A stretch of DNA of 64,000 nucleotides from NCBI GenBank assembly GCA_963662355.1, contig OY759361.1, positions 456,031 to 520,030 on the forward strand, in the 5' to 3' direction. Positions 1,135 through 18,666 of this stretch are shown here, in pieces. Source of the DNA: Gammaproteobacteria bacterium. Lineage in GTDB: Bacteria; Pseudomonadota; Gammaproteobacteria; UBA4575. Positions within the stretch are counted from its first letter, which is position 1. Every line of letters starts with the position of its first letter. A program made the position numbers and the translations under genes. A model generated the notes under the pieces. The model was not told where the DNA came from. It saw only the letters and a program-made list of their open reading frames with translations, and searched no databases.

Positions 1135-3594
1135 TTAAAAGATCTGTTCAGGAGGTTCGGCTTCTCCATCATCTTTGCGGGTAGACGGCATAAGGTCGGG
1201 GTCGGCTTGTTTGCCCCGCACAGGCACATATCCCTGGCGAAACGTCTCTTCGATTCCCTGGTCGTTGTCCTGATCATCAATCGGCAATCCGGTTGCGGGA
1301 TCGATCCGCACGGTGACAATGGTCTCGGGCTGCTTGAGCGTGTTTTCCGCCTTGTCCTGGAGCGCAAACCGCATGAACTCGATCCACACAGGCAGCGCTG
1401 CCACCCCGCCCACTTCCCTGCGCCCGAGCGGCCTGTACCCATCAAATCCTACCCAGGCAATGGCCACAATATCACCGTTGAAGCCACTGAACCACGCATC
1501 TCTCTGTTCATTGGTGGTACCTGTCTTTCCGGCCAAATCACTGCGCCCCAGCTGACGTGCCTTACGGCCTGTGCCAAACTGTATCACGTCCTGCAACATG
1601 CTTACCATCTGGTAGGCATTCCCCCGGGGCAATACACGCTGCGCCATCTGGATCCCGGAGTCGCCCACCTCGTCCTGCTCCATGATCTCACTACTGCTGA
1701 CCAGCAACTGCTCCTGCAGCGCCAGACAGTCCTCTTCGCACACCATATGCGGACTGGACCGGAACAGGACCTGTCCCTTGTAATCTTCAATCCGTTCAAT
1801 GACATACGGTTCAATATAGTACCCGCCATTGGCAAACACCGCATACCCCCGGGCCATTTCAAACGGCGTGACCGCACCCGAGCCCAGAGCCAGACTCAGG
1901 TTTCTGGGCAAGCGCTCGCTGGCAAAGCCAAATCTGGCGATATGCTGCACAGCGTACCGATGCCCTACACCCCGCAGCACCCGGATAGAAACCATATTGC
2001 GTGATTTTGTGAGCGCATCGCGCAGACGCGTGGGACCGAAAAACTTGCCGCTGTAATTCTTGGGCCGCCAGGTATTCTCCAGGCTCTCATCCTCAAATAC
2101 CACCGGCGCATCGTTCACGATACTGGCTGGCGTGTAGCCGGATTCCAGTGCTGCAGAATAGATGAATGGCTTGAAACTGGACCCGGGCTGACGCTCGGCC
2201 TGCATGACACGATTGAACTTGCTGCGGCTGTAATCGTACCCGCCCACCAGGGCCAGCACACTGCCGTTTTGGGGATCGATGGCAATGAAGGCCCCCTCAA
2301 CCTCGGGAATCTGGCTCAGGGTCCATGTGCCGGACCCGGTTTTTACCACCCGGATGACATCACCGAGCGCAAACATGCTGACAAAGTCCCCCGGTGTCTC
2401 GCCCATGACATTTTCACTGACATAAGCCTTCGCCCACTTAGCCTGGGCGATGGACAGCGTGGCGGACTGCTGGTTGCCCAGGTACACCTCGATTTCCTGA
2501 GGGTCGACCCGGGTCACTATGGCCGGTGTCAGACCGCCCGTCTTACGCAAGCCGCCCAGTGCCTCATCCAGCTTGGCGAGATCGGCAACCCCCTCTTGCG
2601 TGTACGCAAGCTGCAGATGGGATTCCACACCACGGTAGCCATGGCGCCGGTCATACGCTTGCAACCCATCCCGCAGGGCCTGCTGTGCCTGCTGCTGAAG
2701 TTCGCTGTTGACTGTCGTGTACACACGGTAGCCCTTTTTGTAGGTATCGGTTCCGAAGGAATCAAACATCTGCGAGCGGGCCATCTCACCGATATACGGC
2801 GCATGCACTTCCACTTTGGGGTAATGCAGCGATGCGGTGACCGGCTCGTCCAGCATGCCCTGGTACACGTCCGTGCCGATGAACCGCAACTCATGCATCC
2901 TTCCCAGCACATAGTCGCGGCGCACAATGGCACGCTCCGGGTTGATGATAGGGTTGAAGCGTGAAGGGGCCTTGGGCAATCCCGCTATCATCGCGATCTG
3001 TGCAAGATTCAATTCGTGCACACCCAGCCCGTAATAGACTTCTGCCGCAGCCCCGACACCGTATGCACGGTTACCCAGGTAGATCTTGTTCAGGTACAGC
3101 TCGAGGATCTCGTCCTTGTTGAATTCATGTTCGATTCTCAGGGCCAGGAAGATTTCCTTGATCTTGCGGGTGTAGGTGCGCTCATTGCCGAGAAAGAAAT
3201 TCCTGGCCAGTTGCATCGTGACCGTGCTTCCTCCCTGACGCTTTTCTCCGGTGAGCAGTACACTGATTGCAGCCCGCAGAAGACCCTGGTAATCGACCCC
3301 GAGATGTTCGTAGAACCGGTCATCCTCGGCAGCCAGAAATGCCTGCACCAGTACTTCGGGCAGTTCATCAACTTCCAGCGGCTCACGACGTTGCTCACCA
3401 TATACCGCGATCAGTTTGCCATCGCGACTGTAGACCTTGAGCGGCACCTGCAGCTCCACATCCCTGAGCATGGACACTCCGGGCAGGGAAGGAGCGAGGT
3501 AAATGTAGGCTCCCAGCACTGCAGCGATGACAGCGAGAAATGCCCCGAACACCCCGGCCAGCCCGAGGCGCAAGAGCTTCAGGAAGGTGGACAT
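1135..3594 (-). CDS. mrcA: Penicillin-binding protein 1A
   Basis: Transglycosylase motifs EDDRFYEH and GGSTVTMQLARN; transpeptidase motifs SSFK, SRN and KTG; N-terminal TM anchor; likely start is ATG 3594. Confidence 0.97.
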   Translation of the reverse strand: MSTFLKLLRLGLAGVFGAFLAVIAAVLGAYIYLAPSLPGVSMLRDVELQVPLKVYSRDGKLIAVYGEQRREPLEVDELPEVLVQAFLAAEDDRFYEHLGVDYQGLLRAAISVLLTGEKRQGGSTVTMQLARNFFLGNERTYTRKIKEIFLALRIEHEFNKDEILELYLNKIYLGNRAYGVGAAAEVYYGLGVHELNLAQIAMIAGLPKAPSRFNPIINPERAIVRRDYVLGRMHELRFIGTDVYQGMLDEPVTASLHYPKVEVHAPYIGEMARSQMFDSFGTDTYKKGYRVYTTVNSELQQQAQQALRDGLQAYDRRHGYRGVESHLQLAYTQEGVADLAKLDEALGGLRKTGGLTPAIVTRVDPQEIEVYLGNQQSATLSIAQAKWAKAYVSENVMGETPGDFVSMFALGDVIRVVKTGSGTWTLSQIPEVEGAFIAIDPQNGSVLALVGGYDYSRSKFNRVMQAERQPGSSFKPFIYSAALESGYTPASIVNDAPVVFEDESLENTWRPKNYSGKFFGPTRLRDALTKSRNMVSIRVLRGVGHRYAVQHIARFGFASERLPRNLSLALGSGAVTPFEMARGYAVFANGGYYIEPYVIERIEDYKGQVLFRSSPHMVCEEDCLALQEQLLVSSSEIMEQDEVGDSGIQMAQRVLPRGNAYQMVSMLQDVIQFGTGRKARQLGRSDLAGKTGTTNEQRDAWFSGFNGDIVAIAWVGFDGYRPLGRREVGGVAALPVWIEFMRFALQDKAENTLKQPETIVTVRIDPATGLPIDDQDNDQGIEETFRQGYVPVRGKQADPDLMPSTRKDDGEAEPPEQIF

Positions 3595-11112: not shown

Positions 11113-12669
11113 CTACTCATTAGTAGCGCCAAAGGCACCGATTACATGACCATCAGTAAAGTGGCCTGTAAATTCGCCAGCTGCACCACCAGGATACGTG
11201 TTTTCAGCTGACTGATCAGCTGCTGTATCTGCATTTGGCCCAAAGAAAGCACCTCTCCACTGACCCATGGAGTTTCCTGTCCCTGTAGTGCCCTCAAAAG
11301 CATCTGATCGGCTACCTGTTGTGCCTAATGGAGCACGATTAAGAAGGAGGTTCCAGTTTGCGCTAATCACATCTCCATAGGCATTCTGGAAATTGTCCAC
11401 TGTGCCGCTGACTGAGAATGCCTCATTAGCAGAAATGTGACCAACCTCTATAGTGGAATCTGTAGGAGTTTCGTTTCCAAAATGTGCTGTCAAACTTACA
11501 TCAGCAGAAAATTGACCAGCATACGCCGGGGTTCCTACTACTTCTCCGTCTACCACAGAAAGTTCTTTCTTGGCATAAAGACCGGTTGCAGATCCTTCAT
11601 AGGTTGCAGTTCCATGCAGATCTGCAATAGCTTGGTTGGCGTTTGTACGGTCACCATCATCGTCAAACGGCATACTTCCACCAGAAAACGCACCCACTCC
11701 ATACTTTGTGCCACTTCCCATTGCCATGGTCTGTACCCAATATCCAAATGACAAGTAATCTGTATCTGGCATAGCACCAGCAATAGCGTGTGCATCTTGG
11801 GTGTCATCTACTGTTTTCGTAGGCGTAAACGTAAGCGAGCCTGCAGTTACTTGTACCCCGCCTGTTGATTGCTCTACTGTGCATGCGTCACCTCCGCATG
11901 CGTAAGATCCCGGAACCCCTCTGAATGTACCCGAAAACATCGAGCTAGCATCAAGCTCTCGTGTTACGGTGTCACTGCCTGTCGCACCTGATGGAAAACC
12001 AGAACCTGTGATTGCATTGTCACCTCCAGCTGTAATATCAGAATCTTCTGTGAAGGTAAGTACGCGGTAGGTTGTTTCTCCAGGATCATTAGCCGCAGCG
12101 GCACCCGTTGTGATGTCGGTATGAGTTGTGCCGTCTGCATAGACAGTATTAAATGGCACGGCTTTAGCAGCTTCTACGTTCGTATACACTGTTATTGTGT
12201 CGGTTTTTCCTGTAGTTGTTGTCCTCTCATGAACACTCGCACTAAACCCTGAACCTGACATGTCAATGCGAGAAGAATCTATATTTTGAAACTCGTTCGC
12301 ATTTCTGATATTGACATCGTTCTTGTCTAAAATATCTACCATTGTACCAGTGGTGACTGTAGTCTGGCCTCCGGTACCGAAGGCAAATTCTCCAGTTGGT
12401 CGCCTTTTTGTAAGTTCGTTGTCCATCGGTTCGGGCAGCTTGCCATCACCATCCGGATCAGCAATCGCCTCGGTCAAGCCCATGACCCTAGCTTGTTCAG
12501 CAGCCAATTCTTCTTCCGTTGGCCCTTCAGGTTCCGTAGGCATTTCAGGTTCCGTAGGCATTTCAGGCGTAACTGGTGTGTCTGGCACACTGCTACTGCC
12601 ACCGCCCCCTCCACACGCTGCTAGTGTGAAAGCAAACAGTAAAATAATAAGCATAGAAGTAAACTTCAT
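11113..12669 (-). CDS. Surface lipoprotein with C-terminal TbpB-like beta-barrel
   Basis: Signal peptide with lipobox LAAC followed by GGGGG; Pro/Glu-rich linker; C-terminal 'GQWRGAFFGP...AGEFTGHF..GHVIGAFGA'. Confidence 0.8.
   Translation of the reverse strand: MKFTSMLIILLFAFTLAACGGGGGSSSVPDTPVTPEMPTEPEMPTEPEGPTEEELAAEQARVMGLTEAIADPDGDGKLPEPMDNELTKRRPTGEFAFGTGGQTTVTTGTMVDILDKNDVNIRNANEFQNIDSSRIDMSGSGFSASVHERTTTTGKTDTITVYTNVEAAKAVPFNTVYADGTTHTDITTGAAAANDPGETTYRVLTFTEDSDITAGGDNAITGSGFPSGATGSDTVTRELDASSMFSGTFRGVPGSYACGGDACTVEQSTGGVQVTAGSLTFTPTKTVDDTQDAHAIAGAMPDTDYLSFGYWVQTMAMGSGTKYGVGAFSGGSMPFDDDGDRTNANQAIADLHGTATYEGSATGLYAKKELSVVDGEVVGTPAYAGQFSADVSLTAHFGNETPTDSTIEVGHISANEAFSVSGTVDNFQNAYGDVISANWNLLLNRAPLGTTGSRSDAFEGTTGTGNSMGQWRGAFFGPNADTAADQSAENTYPGGAAGEFTGHFTDGHVIGAFGATNE
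12526..12567. repeat. 18-bp tandem repeat encoding the PEMPTE linker
   Basis: TTCAGGTTCCGTAGGCAT twice plus a partial copy. Confidence 0.85.
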
Positions 12670-13074
12670 TTCACTCTCCCTCTTCAAAGTAGACATCAAC
12701 TTCCCGGACACTATAGGTGCCGAGCCATTTGTCAACGTCAACTAAGAAAATGGAAGTCTCTGCCTGTTTCCACAGAACATAGAAAATGAAGCCTAATTAC
12801 ATGCTCGAATGGTGTTACATTCGGCAGATAACCCAGCTTCGGGGTCTTAGTTGAATTGACAAGCGCAATATTAACTTGCAAAAAATTTGTATGCAAGTAA
12901 ATTCTTTATGATGTAAGCAAATAGGAGTCTTAATTTGTTGTATGTCTGTATACAAGGTTTACCAAATAGATAAGATTAATTGTGTATTTATATGGTATTG
13001 ACTTTGGCGCAAAATTCAAGTACGGTTTATTCCAGGAATATTAATAACTTAACTAACATTTACGGGGTAGAGAA

Positions 13075-13308
13075 ATGGGTAGAGTTATCGGACCAAATGG
13101 TGAAATAAGACCATCTGATCCTGTTGCCAATGCATTACGCATTTGTAAAATAGCTACAGGTGAAGCTAAAGAAGAATATGTAGATAATCGACGTAAAGGT
13201 GGCCTTAAAGGAGGCAAGGCTAGGGCAAAAAAATTGTCTCCTGAAGAACGGAAGGCGATTGCTGTTAAAGCTGCTAACACTAGATGGGGTAAACACGCCG
13301 CAGGCTAA
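13075..13308 (+). CDS. Small basic protein of the type often found beside IS1/IS1595-like transposases
   Basis: 77 aa, 'RPSDPVANA...IATGE...KGGLKGGKARAKKLSPEERKAIA.KAA..RW'; followed by a terminator. Confidence 0.8.
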   Translation: MGRVIGPNGEIRPSDPVANALRICKIATGEAKEEYVDNRRKGGLKGGKARAKKLSPEERKAIAVKAANTRWGKHAAG

Positions 13309-13336
13309 ATCTAATACATCTTCATTTCCCTTTTAT

Positions 13337-13365
13337 AAACCCGGATTCAAGTCCGGGTTTTTTTT
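13337..13365 (+). terminator. Intrinsic terminator
   Basis: AAACCCGGA-ttcaag-TCCGGGTTT followed by a T run. Confidence 0.85.
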
Positions 13366-13420
13366 GCCTGACGAATTCCTTAATTATAATTAGATTTTTT
13401 TATTGACACATAAGAAATGC

Positions 13421-13448
13421 TTGACAACAGCATTTTGTCAGGTACAAT
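13421..13448 (+). promoter_or_regulatory. Sigma70-like transposase promoter overlapped by an inverted repeat
   Basis: TTGACA-N16-TACAAT, containing TGACAA...TTGTCA. Confidence 0.65.
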
Positions 13449-13505
13449 TGTGGTTATGAAACTAAATGATTATTACTATGAGAGTGAGGTGCATTAACAT
13501 AAAGC

Positions 13506-14471
13506 ATGAACAGGTTGTCTACAGAGAAACGAGCATTAATCCTTCAAGCGTTGGTTGAAGGCAATTCGATGCGCTCCGCTTCCCGGCTAGCAAATGTAGA
13601 TGTCAATACGGTAACCCGGTTGATGTCAGCTGCAGGATCTGTCTGTGCTGATTACCACGATAGGAAAGTGCGCAAACTTGATGGTTTCCACAGGATTGAA
13701 ATTGATGAGATTTGGGCGTTCGTATATGCCAAGGATTATAAACTGAGGCATAACCTTGTAAAAAATGCCCCACCTGTATCAGGCAGTGCATGGACCTTCA
13801 CGGCCTTGGATGCGGACACCAAGCTGATAATCAGTTACTTGGTCGCTGAACGTAATGAATTTGGCGCAGGATTGTTTGTACAGGACCTGTGCTCAAGGTT
13901 GACTCGACCACCACAAATTACAGCAGATGGATTCATACCTTACAAGGCGGCTGTTGAAGATGCTTTTGGTGCTTATTCAAACTTTTCACAGGTAATAAAA
14001 AGTTTTGAATCCGACAAGATGAAAGAAAAATATAAATCTGAGGATGTAGACAATATTGAAAACCTAGGAGAGTACGAAGGTAGAAAATATAAACATTTTC
14101 CTAAAAGAGAAACAAAAATTGAAAAACGTATAGTCGCAGGCAATCCTGATATGGATATGGCTACTACGTCTCATGTAGAACGCAATAACCTTAACATACG
14201 AATGTTTAATCGCAGATTTACAAGGTTGACTAACGCTTTTTCAAAAAGGATAGATAAGCTTATAGACTCGATTAACCTACATTTCCTGTACTCCAATTTT
14301 TGCAGGATTCATGGTTCCCTTCGCGTAACTCCTGCCATGGAAGCAGGACTTACCGATACGGTGCATGATCTGGAGTGGCTTGTAGGTATGATCGATGACA
14401 GCACAACGCCACCCAAGCGGCCCAAGCATTACAAGAAGAAGAAAAAGGCAAGAGAGCAAGTGTCTATATAA
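13506..14471 (+). CDS. IS1-family DDE transposase (single ORF)
   Basis: N-terminal HTH (EGNSMRSASRL); catalytic region IEIDEIWAFV, ITADG, TSHVERNNL..R...RRFTRLTNAFSK; TPAMEAGL. Confidence 0.9.
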   Translation: MNRLSTEKRALILQALVEGNSMRSASRLANVDVNTVTRLMSAAGSVCADYHDRKVRKLDGFHRIEIDEIWAFVYAKDYKLRHNLVKNAPPVSGSAWTFTALDADTKLIISYLVAERNEFGAGLFVQDLCSRLTRPPQITADGFIPYKAAVEDAFGAYSNFSQVIKSFESDKMKEKYKSEDVDNIENLGEYEGRKYKHFPKRETKIEKRIVAGNPDMDMATTSHVERNNLNIRMFNRRFTRLTNAFSKRIDKLIDSINLHFLYSNFCRIHGSLRVTPAMEAGLTDTVHDLEWLVGMIDDSTTPPKRPKHYKKKKKAREQVSI

Positions 14472-14526
14472 TCATTTTTTATGTAATACTATTTTTGACA
14501 ATATTCGCAAATTCTGTATTATCTAA

Positions 14527-14588
14527 GTTGGATTGGGAGTTCCTGGTCGGCATCTAGCCTTGGTGTATACCGAGGCTTTTCGTTTTTT
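14527..14588 (+). ncRNA. Putative small RNA 1 upstream of the NYN gene
   Basis: Promoter TTGACA(14495)-N16-TATTAT(14517); GU-rich hairpin; terminator AGCCTTGGT-gtat-ACCGAGGCT plus T tract. Confidence 0.5.
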
Positions 14589-14627
14589 AAGGGAAAGTGT
14601 TTTATCCCCTAATACATTATGAAATCC

Positions 14628-14689
14628 AAAAAAAACGCCAGCCTCTAGAAGCTGGCGTTCTGGCCGAGGCATGAAAACCTCGGTGTGGT
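14628..14689 (-). ncRNA. Putative small RNA 2, antisense to the NYN leader
   Basis: Minus-strand promoter TTGACT(14723)-N16-TACAAT(14701); hairpin CCGAGG/CCTCGG; terminator AACGCCAGC/GCTGGCGTT plus U8. Confidence 0.5.
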
Positions 14690-14733
14690 AACTCAATTGT
14701 ACAGAATTAAAATTTCTAGTCAATATAAATAAT

Positions 14734-15357
14734 ATGCCAGAAAACCAAAGAGTTATTGTATATATTGATGGGTACAATTTGTATTTTGGCCTCGATTATG
14801 TGTATGGAGGCCGATATAAATGGTTAGATTTACAAGCACTTTCAGAAAGTTTTCTGAAACCTGACATGACACTAGTTACTGTTAAGTACTTCACTACTAA
14901 AACAACAATTACACCTGATGCAAATAAACGACAGGCAATCTATCTAAAAGCATTAGATACGTATTGCAACAAGCTAGAATTTTATTACGGTAAATTTTTT
15001 TCTAAGAAAAATAAGTGCGGAAAGTGTGGTTATAAACGTGTCACTCCAAAAGAGAAAATGACCGATGTAAATATTGCATGTCATATACTGAATGATGCTC
15101 ATTTTGATTTTTATGACTGTTGCTATATTGTGTCTGGTGACAGTGACTTGTTACCTCTTGTTGAAATGGTGAAAGAAAATTATCCTGATAAACACATAAT
15201 TGTGGCACACCCACCAGAGCGTAAGAGTGATGCCCTTTGTGATATGGCGAATGGTTCATTCGCAATCGGTAAACATAAATTAAAAAGAAGTCAATTGCCA
15301 AATAAGATCACAATTGCAAATGGTAAAGAATTAATCAAGCCGATAGAATGGCAATAG
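14734..15357 (+). CDS. NYN-domain (LabA/DUF88, PIN-like) ribonuclease
   Basis: VYIDGYNLY, EKMTDVNIA and VSGDSDL acidic motifs; CxxC insert. Confidence 0.9.
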   Translation: MPENQRVIVYIDGYNLYFGLDYVYGGRYKWLDLQALSESFLKPDMTLVTVKYFTTKTTITPDANKRQAIYLKALDTYCNKLEFYYGKFFSKKNKCGKCGYKRVTPKEKMTDVNIACHILNDAHFDFYDCCYIVSGDSDLLPLVEMVKENYPDKHIIVAHPPERKSDALCDMANGSFAIGKHKLKRSQLPNKITIANGKELIKPIEWQ

Positions 15358-15614
15358 TCTCAGGTTTTTAACACTTTAATTGTCGGGCATCATCCGTAAA
15401 CAAAGGAACAAAAACGATTTAAACTTTCTACCCATCTGCCTTTTGTAGGCTTACAGAATTGCGGAGGCAATCGCAACTCTATGAAGCCAAACTTAACCCT
15501 AAATTTCAAACTCATACACTACCCCCAAACGCTTAAACTATTCCGTTTTTTCATAACCTGATATACTATGTGGTTCGGCTCAAAGAATTGCAGACCAGGG
15601 GCAGTAAACACCGA

Positions 15615-17435
15615 ATGGATGAGAATCAGCAGCAATCCAACAGCATCAAACGACTTATCGCAAAAGGCAAGGACCAAGGTTTCCTGACATATACAGAAGT
15701 CAACGATCATCTCCCGAGCGGCATCGTTGACCCTGAACAAATCGAAGAGATCGTGAGCACGATCACGGACATGGGCATCAACGTCCATGAGCAGGCGCCT
15801 GATTCAGACAGCCTGATCCTTACAGACAGTACCGCAACAGACGATGATGTCGAGGAAGCAGCCGCGGCCCTGGCAACCGTTGACAGCGAGTTTGGCCGCA
15901 CTACTGACCCGGTACGCATGTACATGCGCGAAATGGGAATTGTCAACCTGCTGACCCGTGAAGGCGAAATCCTGATTGCCAAACGCATCGAGGAAGGCCT
16001 GCGCCAGGTGCTGCTGGCGATCGGTCACTATCCATCCACCATCCAGAAGCTGCTGAAGTTCTATGCAAAAGTCAAGTCAGAGGATGCCCGCCTGACAGAC
16101 CTGATTATCGGGTTTGTTGACATGGACGAAGACACCAATGCTATTCCACCCCCTGCGACGCAAGTCACCCAGAATGGCAAGAATGAAACTGCCAGTGAGG
16201 ATGAAGAAGACGAGAAAGAACTGGATACAGGTCCTGATCCCAAAGAGGTCCTTGCGTATTTTACAAAGCTGGAAAGGATGTACAAAAAATTCTGTACGGC
16301 ATCCGGCGATGAGAAAAAGCAACGAGCAGGGCGTGAAAAGCTTGCCAAAGAGTTTGCTTCGATCAATCTCACACCCAAGGTGGTCGATGTACTGACCGCT
16401 GACTTCAAATGGATGGTTGGCCGGATTCGGATACACGAGTCGCGCATCAGGCACATGTGCACCCGCGATGCAAGAATGCCGCGCGACAGGTTCATCAAGT
16501 CATTCCCCGGAAATGAGACAAACCTCGACTGGATTGTCTCCATCACCAAGTCGTCACGGGCCAAGTATGCGAAGGCCCTTGCAGAACTGAAACCCGATAT
16601 CATCAAGGAACAGGACAAGCTGATCTCGATCGAACGTGAAACAGGGCTTACGATTCGCGAAATACGGGACATCAACCGGCATATGTCAATCGGTGAAGCC
16701 AAGGCGAGCCGTGCCAAGAAAGAAATGGTCGAGGCCAACCTGCGCCTGGTCATTTCGATTGCCAAAAAATACACCAACCGGGGCCTGCAGTTCCTGGACC
16801 TCATCCAGGAAGGCAACATCGGTTTGATGAAAGCGGTGGACAAATTCGAATATCGGCGGGGATACAAGTTTTCAACTTATGCCACGTGGTGGATTCGCCA
16901 GGCTATTACCCGGTCCATAGCAGACCAGGCCCGCACCATACGAATCCCGGTACACATGATTGAAACCATCAACAAGCTGAACCGGATTTCACGGCAGATG
17001 CTGCAGGAAAAGGGGCGCGAACCGACTCCTGAAGAATTGGCCGAGCGCATGGAAATGCCCGAAGAGAAAGTGCGAAAGGTTCTGAAAATTGCCAAGGAAC
17101 CCATTTCCATGGAAACCCCGATCGGGGACGATGAAGATTCCCATCTAGGTGACTTCATTGAAGATGTCATCATTGAATCGCCTGTGGATTCCGCATCCTT
17201 TGAAGGCCTGGGTGAGGCCACACGTGAAATTCTTGCTTCGTTGACGCCACGTGAAGCCAAGGTATTGCGCATGCGTTTCGGCATCGACATGAACACGGAT
17301 CATACTCTGGAGGAAGTGGGCAAGCAGTTTGATGTGACACGGGAGCGTATTCGCCAGATCGAGGCCAAGGCCCTGCGCAAGCTTCGCCATCCGAGCCGGT
17401 CCGAACAGCTACGCAGCTTTCTCGAGATAGAATAG
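15615..17435 (+). CDS. rpoD: RNA polymerase sigma factor RpoD
   Basis: Region 1.1, [35 protein letters not shown] and TRERIRQIE. Confidence 0.99.
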
Positions 17436-17463
17436 AATCTGCACTTTCGGTGCAAGCAACCCC

Positions 17464-17540
17464 GGGCCTGTAGCTCAGTTGGTTAGAGCAGAGGACTCAT
17501 AATCCTTTGGTCGTAGGTTCGAGTCCTACCGGGCCCATCA
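17464..17540 (+). tRNA. tRNA with CAU anticodon, probably tRNA-Ile2; genomic 3' end reads TCA
   Basis: Cloverleaf GGGCCTG...CGGGCCC-A; anticodon loop CTCATAA; T arm GGTTCGAGTCC; position after rpoD favours Ile2 over Met. Confidence 0.92.
17496..17540 (+). repeat. attL, 45-bp direct repeat (tRNA 3' half)
   Basis: Identical to 32886-32930 except TCA versus CCA at the end. Confidence 0.95.
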
Positions 17541-17544
17541 ATTA

Positions 17545-17608
17545 TATCAATTACTTATGTATTTACTCTTTTCAGTCCCTGTATCATTCGGTACAATTCC
17601 GGTACACT
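17545..17608 (+). promoter_or_regulatory. IHF site and putative integrase arm-type sites
   Basis: TATCAATTACTTA fits WATCAANNNNTTR; CGGTACAATTCCGGTACACT (17589-17608) recurs near attR as CGGTACGTTACCGGAACACT (32747-32766), 16/20 identical. Confidence 0.6.
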
Positions 17609-17625
17609 TATATCGAGATAGACAT

Positions 17626-18666
17626 GTGGCGACCATAAGCAAAACTCCCTCAAACACTTGGAAGGCAATCATCCGCAAGCGCGGCTGGCCGACCACGATC
17701 AAGACCTTTCGTACTAAGCGCGATGCCCAGGACTGGGCACGTCGTACCGAGGATGAGATGGTGCGCGGAGTGTATATCGACCGGGCCGGATCAGATCGTC
17801 TTTTGTTAGATCATGCACTGAATCGCTACCTGCGCGAAGTTTCTTCCACCAAGCGAGCCACCACGGCCTATGCCGAGCACCACAAGGCCAAGGCATTAAA
17901 AGAAAGCCTGGGGGCTTACAGCCTGGCTGCAATCACTCCGAATCTCGTGGCTCAGTACCGGGATAAACGACTGGAGATGGGCAAGTCCAACAACACTGTC
18001 CGTCTGGAGCTGTCCCTGCTCTCGCACTTGTTCACCATCGCCATCAAGGAATGGCAGGTGGGCCTCTTCTACAACCCTGTGGCTAATATCCGAAAACCCT
18101 CACCTGGTAAAGGTCGCGACCGAAGACTGAGTACAGAAGAGGAAAAAAACCTGTTCAAAGCCTGTGATAGTCATTCCAATCCAATGCTGGGCTGGATGGC
18201 CCGCATTGCACTGTACACCGGCATGCGCGCCGGGGAGATCAAGTCGCTAACGCGCTTACAGGTAGACTTGGAGAAGCGCACTGTACATCTTACGGACACC
18301 AAAAACGGATCATCACGGACTGTGCCACTTTCTAGGCAGGCCACGGATGTTTTCCATGTTGCTCTCGGCAATCCTGTACGACCTTTAGATACGGACCTAA
18401 TATTCTGGGGTGAACCTGGAAGAGATGGAGTTCGCCGCCCCTATGAGTTTCGCCCGGCGTGGAGCCGCACCTTGAAGAAAGCCGGCATTGAAGGCCTTCG
18501 TTTCCACGATCTTCGCCATGAAGCGGTATCACGTCTGGTCGAGGCGGGTCTAGGAGACCAAGAGGTGTCTGCGATCTCTGGGCACAAGTCCATGCAGATG
18601 CTCAAGCGCTATACGCACCTGCGCGCAGAGGAACTAGTGGAACGTTTGGATCAGGCCATAGGTTGA
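17626..18666 (+). CDS. Tyrosine integrase of the island
   Basis: TGMRAGEI, TKNG, FHDLRH, ISGHK and RYTHL; immediately inside attL; GTG start. Confidence 0.95.
   Translation: MATISKTPSNTWKAIIRKRGWPTTIKTFRTKRDAQDWARRTEDEMVRGVYIDRAGSDRLLLDHALNRYLREVSSTKRATTAYAEHHKAKALKESLGAYSLAAITPNLVAQYRDKRLEMGKSNNTVRLELSLLSHLFTIAIKEWQVGLFYNPVANIRKPSPGKGRDRRLSTEEEKNLFKACDSHSNPMLGWMARIALYTGMRAGEIKSLTRLQVDLEKRTVHLTDTKNGSSRTVPLSRQATDVFHVALGNPVRPLDTDLIFWGEPGRDGVRRPYEFRPAWSRTLKKAGIEGLRFHDLRHEAVSRLVEAGLGDQEVSAISGHKSMQMLKRYTHLRAEELVERLDQAIG

Follow-up and report, generated by a model that had tools for sequence, protein, structure and literature searches.

A gene for a small two-hairpin RNA was identified beside the gene for an NYN ribonuclease in a gammaproteobacterial genome, and copies of this RNA were found beside related NYN genes across bacteria and, alone, in phages. 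Because the RNA accompanies the NYN family across phyla and phages carry it without the nuclease, it is probably the antidote to a toxic anti-phage nuclease. The pair was found in a window of 64,000 nt (the whole stretch of DNA that was analysed), and the features of the locus are listed in Table 1.

Table 1. Features of the NYN locus, with positions numbered from the first nucleotide of the window
Feature	Position	Strand	Basis
IS1-like transposase ORF	13506-14471	+	Context only; profile matches below cut-offs
Plus-strand unit (promoter-like site, hairpin, terminator)	14495-14589	+	No RNA-model match
Promoter-like TTGACA-N16-TATTAT	14495-14522	+	11/12
G-U-rich hairpin	~14531-14548	+	Fold
Terminator, stem 14556-14577 then TTTTCGTTTTTT	14556-14589	+	Terminator search
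Small RNA gene, ~62-65 nt, predicted start near 14689	14692->14628	-	Covariance-model matches, fold, homologous upstream DNA
Hairpin 1, CCGAGG-UUUUCAUG-CCUCGG	14664-14683	-	Fold and family-wide covariation
Intrinsic terminator, 13-pair stem 14661-14632, U8 14635-14628	14628-14661	-	Terminator search
RNA promoter TTGACT-N16-TACAAT	14723-14696	-	10/12 consensus match
NYN (LabA/DUF88-type) ribonuclease gene, 207 aa	14734-15357	+	Pfam PF01936, PADLOC HEC-09

The gap between the transposase ORF and the NYN ORF is 262 bp long (14472-14733). An earlier note on this DNA had described in it two mirror-image units, each with a promoter, a hairpin and a terminator. Every feature listed there was recovered in its place, and reading of the sequence confirmed that AATTCTG lies immediately 5' of the -10 box in both promoters and that ACCGAGG is common to both units; by a rough estimate, the shared 7-mer ACCGAGG is not by itself improbable. 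In 2000 shuffles of the gap, two promoter-like sites scoring 10/12 or better arose in 1.8 % and one scoring 11/12 or better in 1.1 %. No tandem repeat was found within the 262 bp, and Rfam 15, searched at E<=1 from 12500 to 18000 of the window, returned only a tRNA and two weak matches overlapping that tRNA. The two units are not equivalent: the minus-strand unit alone belongs to a conserved family.

The minus-strand RNA consists, from 5' to 3', of single-stranded ACCACA, hairpin 1, the terminator hairpin and U8. Two covariance models matched 14630-14692 on this strand (R2, 79.4 bits; R3, 52 bits, E 2.9e-14), and this was the only R3 match in the whole 2.0-Mb genome. None of 200 shuffles was as stable as the predicted fold (-31.7 kcal/mol, z -6.3). 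The -35 box of the RNA promoter stops 10 nt short of the NYN start codon. The RNA itself lies outside the NYN ORF, although it may overlap an untranslated leader of the NYN mRNA. The earlier note had suggested looking for a conserved two-hairpin motif upstream of close NYN homologues, and such a motif was found for the minus-strand RNA: homologous DNA lies upstream of the NYN gene in loci L003, L007, L014 and L106, and in four loci besides the window the promoter boxes are kept, with a diverged spacer. Compensatory pair changes were present in the terminator of L106 (three) and in hairpin 1 of L193 (two), whose RNA is of the same type as the window's. An RNA subtype in which an 8-nt loop (WUUUCRUG) replaces the common pentaloop is shared by the window and four other loci. 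By pattern, this subtype was present in 2 of 401 genomes of the same class, the window's genome included; viral contigs gave no matches to it, nor did plasmids and phages searched by blastn. The window copy has both hairpins, an NYN gene beside it, its own promoter and a U-rich tail, the features by which the two-hairpin RNA was recognized.

The NYN protein matched Pfam PF01936 over residues 6-174 (43.7 bits against a cut-off of 24.2, E 5.2e-11), its sole Pfam family, and the PADLOC profile HEC-09 (PDLC04163) over positions 2-203 of 203 (241 bits, E 1.9e-72). It has 916 homologues, and among solved structures the closest in sequence is 2QIP (E 4.4e-6). The acidic motifs had been noted as intact, and D12, D111, D136 and D138 are all present, being invariant in 39 sequences with the window protein among them. 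The catalytic assignment of these columns follows the comparison with MARF1 by Payne et al. (bioRxiv 10.1101/2024.01.29.577857), whose preprint, in the portion available, gives HEC-09 an NYN/MARF1-like fold with three conserved aspartates. The same portion reports that an HEC-09 representative, cloned with its putative native promoter region, gave no protection against the coliphages tested. In the window, the NYN gene lacks a Shine-Dalgarno sequence and has no space for a promoter separate from the RNA promoter region.

The neighbours of the window NYN gene are the IS1-like transposase and rpoD, and this copy is not embedded in a defence system, the setting in which the family was discovered but one that family membership does not require. 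Relatives are embedded in helicase/DUF1156 (Hma-type), type I and type ISP/IIG restriction and cas3-cas5d loci, and also stand beside GmrSD. No protein neighbour was conserved across 63 related loci, the largest neighbour clusters comprising 8 loci each; these loci and the gene list of the window agree with the statement in the earlier note that no protein antitoxin is adjacent. The transposase ORF scored below the cut-offs of both NCBIfam IS1 (50.2 bits against 100) and Pfam DDE_Tnp_IS1 (21 bits against 24.1). The suggestion that the module is borne by a transposon was not upheld: no terminal inverted repeats were found flanking the transposase ORF, its DNA is single copy in the genome, and in same-genus relatives the module instead adjoins the end of a tyrosine-recombinase-like gene (translated DNA read by eye, without a family search).

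The near-obligate linkage of RNA and nuclease was measured in 160 NYN loci, which were picked by similarity to the window protein and are not a random sample; among the matches listed, R3 found at least one RNA copy beside 151 of them at E<=1e-3 (75 of 80 in species genomes and 76 of 80 on metagenome contigs). The metagenome relatives were those of 38-48 % identity among the matches listed, a clade of 55-64 % being left out, and the species-genome relatives were found with an alignment query; a single-protein query had given 80 pattern matches, none a confirmed relative. Without filtering, weak matches at the canonical place were seen in four of the remaining nine loci (L149, L183, L030 and L056). 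Four of the nine have less than 170 nt of upstream DNA, and in L071 no RNA was found despite 1 kb of upstream DNA. Peripheral homologues L005, L008, L009 and L012 (125-179 bits to the HEC-09 profile) gave no R3 match even unfiltered, and L004 gave a weak one only; such relatives either dispense with this RNA or have a form too diverged to detect. A phylum-wide R3 search gave matches in 16 of 151 genomes, only six of them strong. The ten weak matches (22-27 bits) had no NYN gene nearby and were treated as false.

The NYN relatives that have the RNA span many phyla, and its structure is supported by covariation. Among 88 copies, the paired fraction of cells is 99.1 % and compensatory changes are seen at each of the 14 model pairs, in alignments that were fitted to the model and are hence biased towards it. 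None of 500 shuffles reached the real value, and slid controls paired at 39-51 %. In another 88 copies, RNAalifold gave 17 pairs, 15 of them with compensatory changes. Since G-U cells outnumber A-C cells by 37 to 7, the strand called sense appears to be the right one. The unpaired 5' AAC, the pentaloop and the linker CCCGAC are conserved across phyla, in company with NYN proteins that are only ~40 % identical. Tails are U-rich, and a sigma-70 match of at least 10/12 lies within 50 nt upstream of 80 of 176 copies (45 %); for 1760 random stretches of those loci the corresponding figure is 0.2 %. Two to four RNA copies are present in 12 of the 151 loci; those in L040 abut, with no promoter between them. 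Rfam at E<=1, AbiF family included, gave no match at the RNA position in 10 related loci, and the open literature searched, subscription-only papers aside, yielded no description of an RNA partner for NYN or HEC-09.

The earlier note had itself allowed that the hairpins might be only terminators insulating the transposase. Extended to the NYN gene, with the promoter boxes taken as chance in AT-rich DNA and with no RNA partner, this reading is extremely improbable for the locus as a whole. It agrees with the frequent occurrence of convergent terminators between genes and with a count of promoter-like sites over 3 kb no higher than in shuffles (8 found against 7.3 +/- 2.7), and for the plus-strand unit the reading is a reasonable one. 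The minus-strand unit contradicts it by its conservation in many phyla and linkage to NYN, by covariation in the hairpin that is not a terminator, by conserved loop and linker bases, by the promoter enrichment and by solo copies in phages.

The plus-strand unit is placed outside the conserved NYN-RNA module by comparison of the loci, and probably either belongs to the transposase unit, as its terminator or 3' end, or encodes an unrelated small RNA. Its fold (-21.4 kcal/mol, z -2.65) was equalled in stability by 5 of 200 shuffles, neither R2 nor R3 matched it, and no counterpart was seen upstream of four close homologues. In 1 of 40 relatives searched, the same-genus genome G002, 81 nt (14529-14609) are 89 % identical in a non-NYN context. 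That both units act together, the plus-strand RNA being a second regulator whose terminator arm CCUUGGUGU pairs with the 5' ACACCGAGG of the minus-strand RNA, is very improbable. A 9-bp duplex could form, AATTCTG precedes both -10 boxes, two strong promoter-like sites in so short a gap are infrequent in shuffles, and the transcribed part kept in G002 has a G-C to G-U change that preserves the hairpin. However, besides having neither a counterpart beside the close homologues nor an RNA-model match, the unit in G002 lies ~665 kb from that genome's NYN homologue and its -10 box is degenerate. The earlier note proposed that small RNA controls the NYN nuclease, in defence or addiction and in place of a protein antitoxin. 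This fits the minus-strand RNA, on the strength of linkage, covariation and phage copies, and does not extend to the plus-strand unit.

The orientation of the RNA relative to the NYN gene varies. It is upstream and divergent, as in the window, in 137 of 151 loci; upstream on the NYN strand with its own promoter, in the order promoter-RNA-terminator-NYN, in seven; downstream and convergent in six; and in both layouts in one. The ToxIN-like layout proposed earlier does not describe the window, where the RNA is single copy, on the opposite strand and divergent from NYN. The RNA 5' end lies a median of 60 nt from about codon 5 of the NYN gene. No conserved pairing site for the RNA was found in the NYN mRNA, the best duplex sites being scattered along it. 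Duplexes of cognate RNA and mRNA were marginally more stable than non-cognate ones (-43.7 vs -41.8 kcal/mol, P 0.04), in a weak test whose values are inflated by long gapped duplexes.

Regulation in a type I-like manner, with the RNA acting on NYN in cis or through base pairing and not through binding of the protein, is unlikely. In such schemes a strong RNA promoter would occlude the NYN promoter, or the RNA would pair with read-through transcripts, which contain its complement immediately 5' of the NYN start, and block translation or direct cleavage. At the divergent loci the short distance means that the promoters must overlap, read-through from upstream genes in operon-embedded loci would make a perfect antisense target, and the duplex energies lean slightly the same way. 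However, neither mechanism works at the seven loci with the RNA on the NYN strand or the six with it downstream, phage copies far from any NYN gene cannot act in cis, and the best duplex sites are scattered. Unpaired nucleotides that are conserved beside NYN proteins of such low identity also fit recognition by protein better than pairing with a variable mRNA. Since orientation varies and no pairing site in the mRNA is conserved, action in trans is favoured.

Copies of the RNA without NYN were found among viral contigs, where 47 of 72 pattern matches are true RNA copies (at least 37 bits) in 23 sequence clusters; 23 of the 72 had no R3 match and were set aside as chance. No NYN gene was found by tblastn within 1.2 kb of the 47 copies, and genes for terminase, baseplate, DNA polymerase, primase and endolysin are among their neighbours. 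In cultured phages the RNA lies in unannotated gaps of Thermus phage phiLo (58.5 bits) and Dolichospermum phage Dfl-JY45 (49.5 bits), and NYN was absent from four of five whole phage records searched. In phiLo, a stump of ~22 N-terminal residues is all that is left of NYN; it diverges from the RNA gene, whose promoter matches at 12/12. In bacteria, L007 has an intact RNA with its promoter beside an NYN pseudogene, and in L193 the RNA stands as an orphan. It may be that phages use the RNA for some function of their own.

These copies also bear on the reading in which NYN depends on the RNA to act or to sense infection, the RNA being a cofactor, guide, scaffold or bait and no inhibitor, with phage copies acting as decoys or in phage RNA metabolism, a reading we consider improbable. 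The near-obligate linkage and the conserved unpaired nucleotides would fit any specific RNA-protein pair, and a specificity factor is conceivable, as, according to Chi and White, the NYN enzymes characterized to date show no sequence preference in cutting single-stranded RNA. Against this, the RNA and an intact promoter persist where NYN is broken or gone (L007 and L193), the reverse being rare; phiLo, which has lost NYN, retains the RNA with a perfect promoter, a pattern of decay that fits an antidote and not a cofactor; and a phage has no obvious gain from making an activator of a host nuclease.

The preferred reading, which we regard as probable, is that the RNA is a type III-like antitoxin of an NYN toxin and has been copied by phages as counter-defence. 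The NYN gene and the divergent RNA gene would form one two-part module, shared across the HEC-09 NYN family, with the RNA transcribed from a strong promoter of its own and ended by its own terminator. The RNA would inhibit the ribonuclease in trans, most likely bound as a pseudo-substrate, following type III toxin-antitoxin logic, a mechanism supported indirectly by the varied orientation of the RNA and by the solo phage copies. Because the RNA -35 box is so close to the NYN start codon, the NYN promoter must overlap the RNA promoter; a weak NYN promoter placed back to back with it would compete poorly and keep the RNA in excess over NYN. If the supply of RNA stopped, for example by phage shut-off of host transcription, the short RNA would decay, and the freed NYN would cut RNA and abort the infection. 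Phages would counter NYN by carrying their own copy of the RNA. The broader proposal, that HEC-09 is a widespread toxin-antitoxin or abortive-infection system of a new RNA-protein family, with an NYN (PIN-like) toxin, a single-unit two-hairpin RNA of ~60 nt that restrains it, and many unrelated phages, Thermus phage phiLo and a Dolichospermum jumbo phage among them, carrying the captured RNA as an anti-defence gene, appears to us about evenly balanced.

In ToxIN-type systems the antitoxin is a tandem array of ~35-45-nt direct repeats on the toxin strand, upstream of the toxin gene and separated from it by a terminator. The module proposed here resembles the type III systems ToxIN, CptIN and TenpIN (Blower et al. 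2012, PMC3401426) in combining an endoribonuclease with a proposed RNA antidote, no protein antitoxin and links to phage defence, and a minority of HEC-09 loci come closer still, with the promoter-RNA-terminator-nuclease order (the seven loci above) or head-to-tail RNA arrays. It differs in having an NYN fold and not a ToxN-like one, and an RNA that is a ~60-nt two-hairpin unit, usually single and usually on the opposite strand, in place of tandem repeats. To our knowledge, no ToxIN-type system described so far has the divergent single-copy layout that is commonest here. The one reported case in which a phage captured an RNA antitoxin is a laboratory escape mutant. Placing the module in the ToxIN or AbiF families, to which the earlier note had likened it, fails on toxin fold and repeat structure.

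In phage PhiTE, pseudo-ToxI is likewise a phage copy of a host RNA antitoxin without the toxin (PMC3475682); as far as that text could be consulted, it describes escape from ToxIN by RNA mimicry, whereas here the copies are in 23 viral-contig lineages and two cultured phages, known by sequence only. AvcID, in the available text of PMC10511110, works by a type III mechanism, in which the toxin is bound and inhibited by a small RNA that lacks repeats. This RNA is labile and lost when phage stops host transcription, and is present far above the toxin transcript. In AvcID, however, the toxin belongs to the deoxycytidylate deaminases, the AvcI RNA measures ~170-300 nt, and the two genes have no predicted terminator between them. 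The AbiF RNA motif (bioRxiv 10.1101/2025.04.15.648962, on AbiF in Clostridioides difficile, seen in part) is a structured RNA upstream of an abortive-infection gene and a proposed antitoxin; its protein family, Abi_2, and its RNA are both distinct from NYN and the two-hairpin RNA. HEC-09 was named as Hma-embedded candidate 9 by Payne et al.; the window protein belongs to the same family, and embedding with the helicase and DUF1156 methylase was also seen in relatives here. It was presented as a single-gene candidate, the terms 'non-coding' and 'RNA antitoxin' being absent from the available preprint text (bioRxiv 10.1101/2024.01.29.577857), and the RNA partner and the phage copies are added here.

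The two-hairpin RNA would be a new covariation-supported family for annotation. If the proposed explanation is true, a defence candidate orphaned without a phenotype becomes a testable two-part system, and as a practical rule HEC-09 should be cloned with and without its upstream RNA and challenged with phages that lack an RNA copy. The NYN fold, paired with an RNA that is a single unit with its own promoter and may lie in any orientation, would join the few RNA-antitoxin families. Capture of RNA antitoxins by phages would then be a common natural form of counter-defence.

The 262 bp between the transposase and NYN ORFs (14472-14733) were scanned for consensus sites and read directly. All of the sequence elements described for this gap in an earlier note, which had proposed two convergent small-RNA units as candidate antitoxins of the NYN nuclease, were present (see table). 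Two sites matching at least 10 of 12 promoter consensus positions occurred within 262 bp in 1.8 % of 2000 shuffles. The minus-strand RNA folded far better than shuffled sequences (z −6.3) and the plus-strand RNA moderately better (z −2.65). The NYN start codon has no Shine-Dalgarno sequence and lies 10 nt from the −35 box of the minus-strand RNA, from which we infer that the NYN mRNA is leaderless or nearly so, with a weak promoter overlapping that of the RNA.

Features of the transposase-NYN region of the window
Feature	Position	Strand	Evidence
IS1-like transposase ORF	13506-14471	+	NCBIfam IS1 50 bits (cut-off 100) and Pfam 21 (cut-off 24.1), both below cut-off
Plus-strand promoter-like site	14495-14522	+	11/12 consensus match (consensus scan)
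Plus-strand terminator, then T-rich tail	14556-14577 (stem-loop)	+	Consensus scan and direct reading
Minus-strand terminator, 13 pairs, then eight U	14661-14632	-	Consensus scan and direct reading
CCGAGG/CCTCGG hairpin	14664-14683	-	Consensus scan and direct reading
Minus-strand promoter-like site	14723-14696	-	10/12 consensus match (consensus scan)
NYN ORF	14734-15357	+	Pfam PF01936 43.7 bits (cut-off 24.2)

The region from approximately 12750 to 15450 is AT-rich (GC 0.33-0.42 versus about 0.5), is flanked by a lipoprotein gene and rpoD, and occurs once in the 2.0-Mb genome searched. Within this island are also a 77-aa basic ORF (13075-13308), which has a terminator of its own (13337-13360), and a TTGACA-N16-TACAAT site (13421-13448) preceding the IS1-like transposase. 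A tRNA gene (75 bits) immediately follows rpoD, and behind it comes a tyrosine-integrase-like ORF (17557-18666). The region (17464-18666) is likely to be an integration site of another element.

The two units were compared upstream of NYN in the nearest relatives whose DNA was obtained, namely two same-genus genomes (L003 and L007), Candidatus Poriferihabitans (L014) and a member of the same class (L106), whose NYN proteins are approximately 61-64 % identical to that of the window where measured. A conserved upstream motif was found for the minus-strand unit, which recurs nearly base for base in all four, but not for the plus-strand unit, which has no counterpart upstream of NYN in any of them. 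In the minus-strand unit, the −35 and −10 boxes are conserved around a diverged spacer, the transcribed part has a mean identity of 83 %, and L106 carries three compensatory pairs in the terminator. Judged by this conservation, the two units are not equivalent. The stretch transcribed in the plus-strand unit (14529-14609) has an 89 % identical counterpart in one of 40 relatives searched (G002, same genus), approximately 665 kb from the NYN homologue of that genome and with a degenerate −10 box. This copy (L207, ~1520-1600, minus strand) lies ~1 kb downstream of a tyrosine-recombinase-like ORF and has a G-C to G-U change that preserves the G-U-rich hairpin; the plus-strand part may be a small RNA or the end piece of another mobile element. 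In L003 (~2190-2330) and L007 (~1850-2100; both on the NYN-sense strand) the RNA-NYN module comes after the 3′ end of a conserved ORF, which on reading by eye looks like a tyrosine recombinase (...LRHAYA...LGHERIQIVATYCGR).

A covariance model (R2) was built from the window RNA and the L003, L007, L014 and L106 copies. Matches to R2 adjoin most of 160 more distant NYN loci, picked by protein similarity (38-62 % identity) and consisting of 80 species genomes and 80 metagenome contigs, the latter from among the matches listed; record titles name Chloroflexota, Actinomycetota, Bacteroidota, Planctomycetota, Proteobacteria and others. A second model (R3), built from 88 matches and giving rough E-values, detected one or more RNA copies in 151 of these loci (E<=1e-3). 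Four of the remaining nine have weak matches at the canonical place with filters off, in four the upstream DNA is shorter than 170 nt, and one (L071) has no RNA even with filters off. The RNA is upstream and divergent only in 137 loci (median of 60 nt from RNA 5′ end to approximately NYN codon 5), downstream and convergent only in six, and on both sides of NYN in one; in seven it is upstream on the NYN strand. Most loci carry one copy (139), with two in 10 loci, three in one and four in one. The four copies of L054 (3666-4039) lie downstream of NYN in convergent orientation at intervals of ~105 nt, and every copy has a TTGACA...TAATAT promoter to itself. At E<=1, neither the window gap nor 10 of the loci matched any Rfam 15 family, and R3 found the RNA once in the genome of the window.

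In its common form the RNA begins with a 5′ tail of 8 nt (nnAACCnC); then come an 8-bp hairpin whose pentaloop is (U/G)AG(C/U)A, a CCCGAC linker and a variable terminator hairpin followed by GUUUCUU and more U. The window RNA and those of its four closest relatives constitute a subtype in which the loop is 8 nt long. In alignments that were fitted to the model, and hence lean towards structure, 99.1 % of cells pair across 88 copies with compensatory changes in all 14 pairs, a level reached by none of 500 shuffles, and RNAalifold independently returned the same two hairpins for another set of 88 copies, with 17 pairs of which 15 show compensatory changes. For slid partners the pairing is 39-51 %, and these controls, together with the many pair types, argue that the covariation is real despite the fitting. 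G-U cells outnumber A-C cells by 37 to 7, which fits transcription of the strand taken as sense. A sigma-70 match of at least 10/12 lies in the 50 nt upstream of 80 of 176 RNA copies, versus 0.2 % of 1760 random windows from those loci. The RNA is predicted to be a separate, strongly promoted and terminated transcript.

The window NYN matches the PADLOC-DB family HEC-09 over the full profile length (E 1.9e-72). This family and its defence context are already known, as a candidate: Payne et al. (bioRxiv 10.1101/2024.01.29.577857) found this NYN/MARF1-like family embedded in Hma systems. One representative, which they cloned together with its putative native promoter region, gave no protection against the coliphages tested, in the only phage test published, and their text has no mention of a non-coding RNA. 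The window copy lies outside any defence system. Pfam searches of 35 large neighbour ORFs at 18 loci identified a helicase (Helicase_C and NOV_C) with a DUF1156 methylase (L020, L022, L040 and L080), type I restriction hsdM/S/R (L045, L052 and L077), type ISP/IIG enzymes (L015, L051 and L074), cas3 with cas5d (L063), GmrSD (L016), PLD (L036) and ribonucleotide reductase (L062 and L078). Clustering of all neighbours at 63 loci detected no conserved protein partner (largest clusters, eight loci each), leaving the RNA as the only constant companion of NYN.

The RNA also occurs without the nuclease. A 151-genome sample of the phylum contained six strong R3 matches, comprising the window, four with NYN adjacent and one orphan. 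The orphan (L193, 1501-1561, minus strand) is a window-subtype RNA with two compensatory changes in hairpin 1 and a TTGTTA...TATAAT promoter; it lies downstream of a Fic/DOC family gene, with no NYN within 1.5 kb. In L007 the NYN gene is cut off after about 56 residues (~1500-1680), next to an RNA gene (1721-1781) and promoter that are both intact. In IMG/VR, an exact-pattern search restricted to a single common loop variant picked out 72 viral contigs, which R3 divided into 47 true copies (at least 37 bits; 23 sequence clusters), two weak and 23 chance matches. In none of the 72 did tblastn, run with five family members, detect an NYN within 1.2 kb (best E 0.77). Among 35 neighbour ORFs of the viral copies, PHROGs annotation identified phage genes, including both terminase subunits (small and large), baseplate wedge, endolysins, DNA polymerase, primase, exonuclease and ribonucleotide reductase. 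Two cultured phages, Thermus phage phiLo (58.5 bits) and Dolichospermum phage Dfl-JY45 (49.5 bits), have the RNA in gaps that bear no annotation. When five whole phage records were searched with a profile, four had no NYN, one of these being a contig rated 100 % complete. In phiLo there is only an NYN stump of ~22 residues (MERIIAYVDGFNLYFGLREAKL), followed by unrelated sequence and a stop. This 40-codon ORF (L281, 1280-1444, minus strand) has a good ribosome-binding site and is divergent from the RNA gene (1465-1555, plus strand), which has a 12/12 promoter (TTGACA-N17-TATAAT); the phiLo record annotates neither. The arrangement reads as the host layout with the nuclease deleted.

The divergent layout is compatible with promoter competition between the RNA and NYN, or with antisense action of the RNA on NYN read-through transcripts. 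Action in trans is argued by the free orientation of the RNA relative to NYN, by the phage copies far from any NYN gene and by the lack of a conserved pairing site in NYN mRNAs in an RNA-mRNA duplex comparison, a weak test. Unpaired RNA bases are conserved across phyla, which suits recognition by a conserved protein, and an RNA that outlasts a decayed NYN and is kept by phages that drop NYN shows the pattern expected of an antidote. Together, these observations suggest that NYN is a toxin for which the RNA most likely serves as antitoxin, following the logic of type III systems. Against this reading stand the divergent layout, with the alternatives that it permits, and four peripheral HEC-09-like homologues (L005, L008, L009 and L012) which, like L071, have no RNA beside them. 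With L004, which has a weak same-strand match only, the peripheral homologues, all from related genomes, score 125-179 bits on the HEC-09 profile and could form a sister group whose partner is a different one or that has none.

The seven same-strand loci have the order promoter-RNA-terminator-nuclease. Three abutting RNA copies upstream of NYN in L040 (2744-2921), head-to-tail with no promoter between them, resemble ToxI arrays, and such arrays may suggest RNA processing. By its toxin fold, repeat array and strand, the module does not belong to the ToxIN-type families. Neither Rfam, the text of the Payne preprint nor full-text searches of the open literature yielded the RNA partner, its structure or the phage copies. 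The HEC-09 RNA-NYN module is proposed to work like a type III system, with expression, toxicity, binding and release all inferred from sequence. As in AvcID, in which the toxin is freed when RNA supply fails during infection (PMC10511110), NYN would be released on loss of the RNA. The phage copies would be mimics of the host RNA, like the pseudo-ToxI of PhiTE (PMC3475682).
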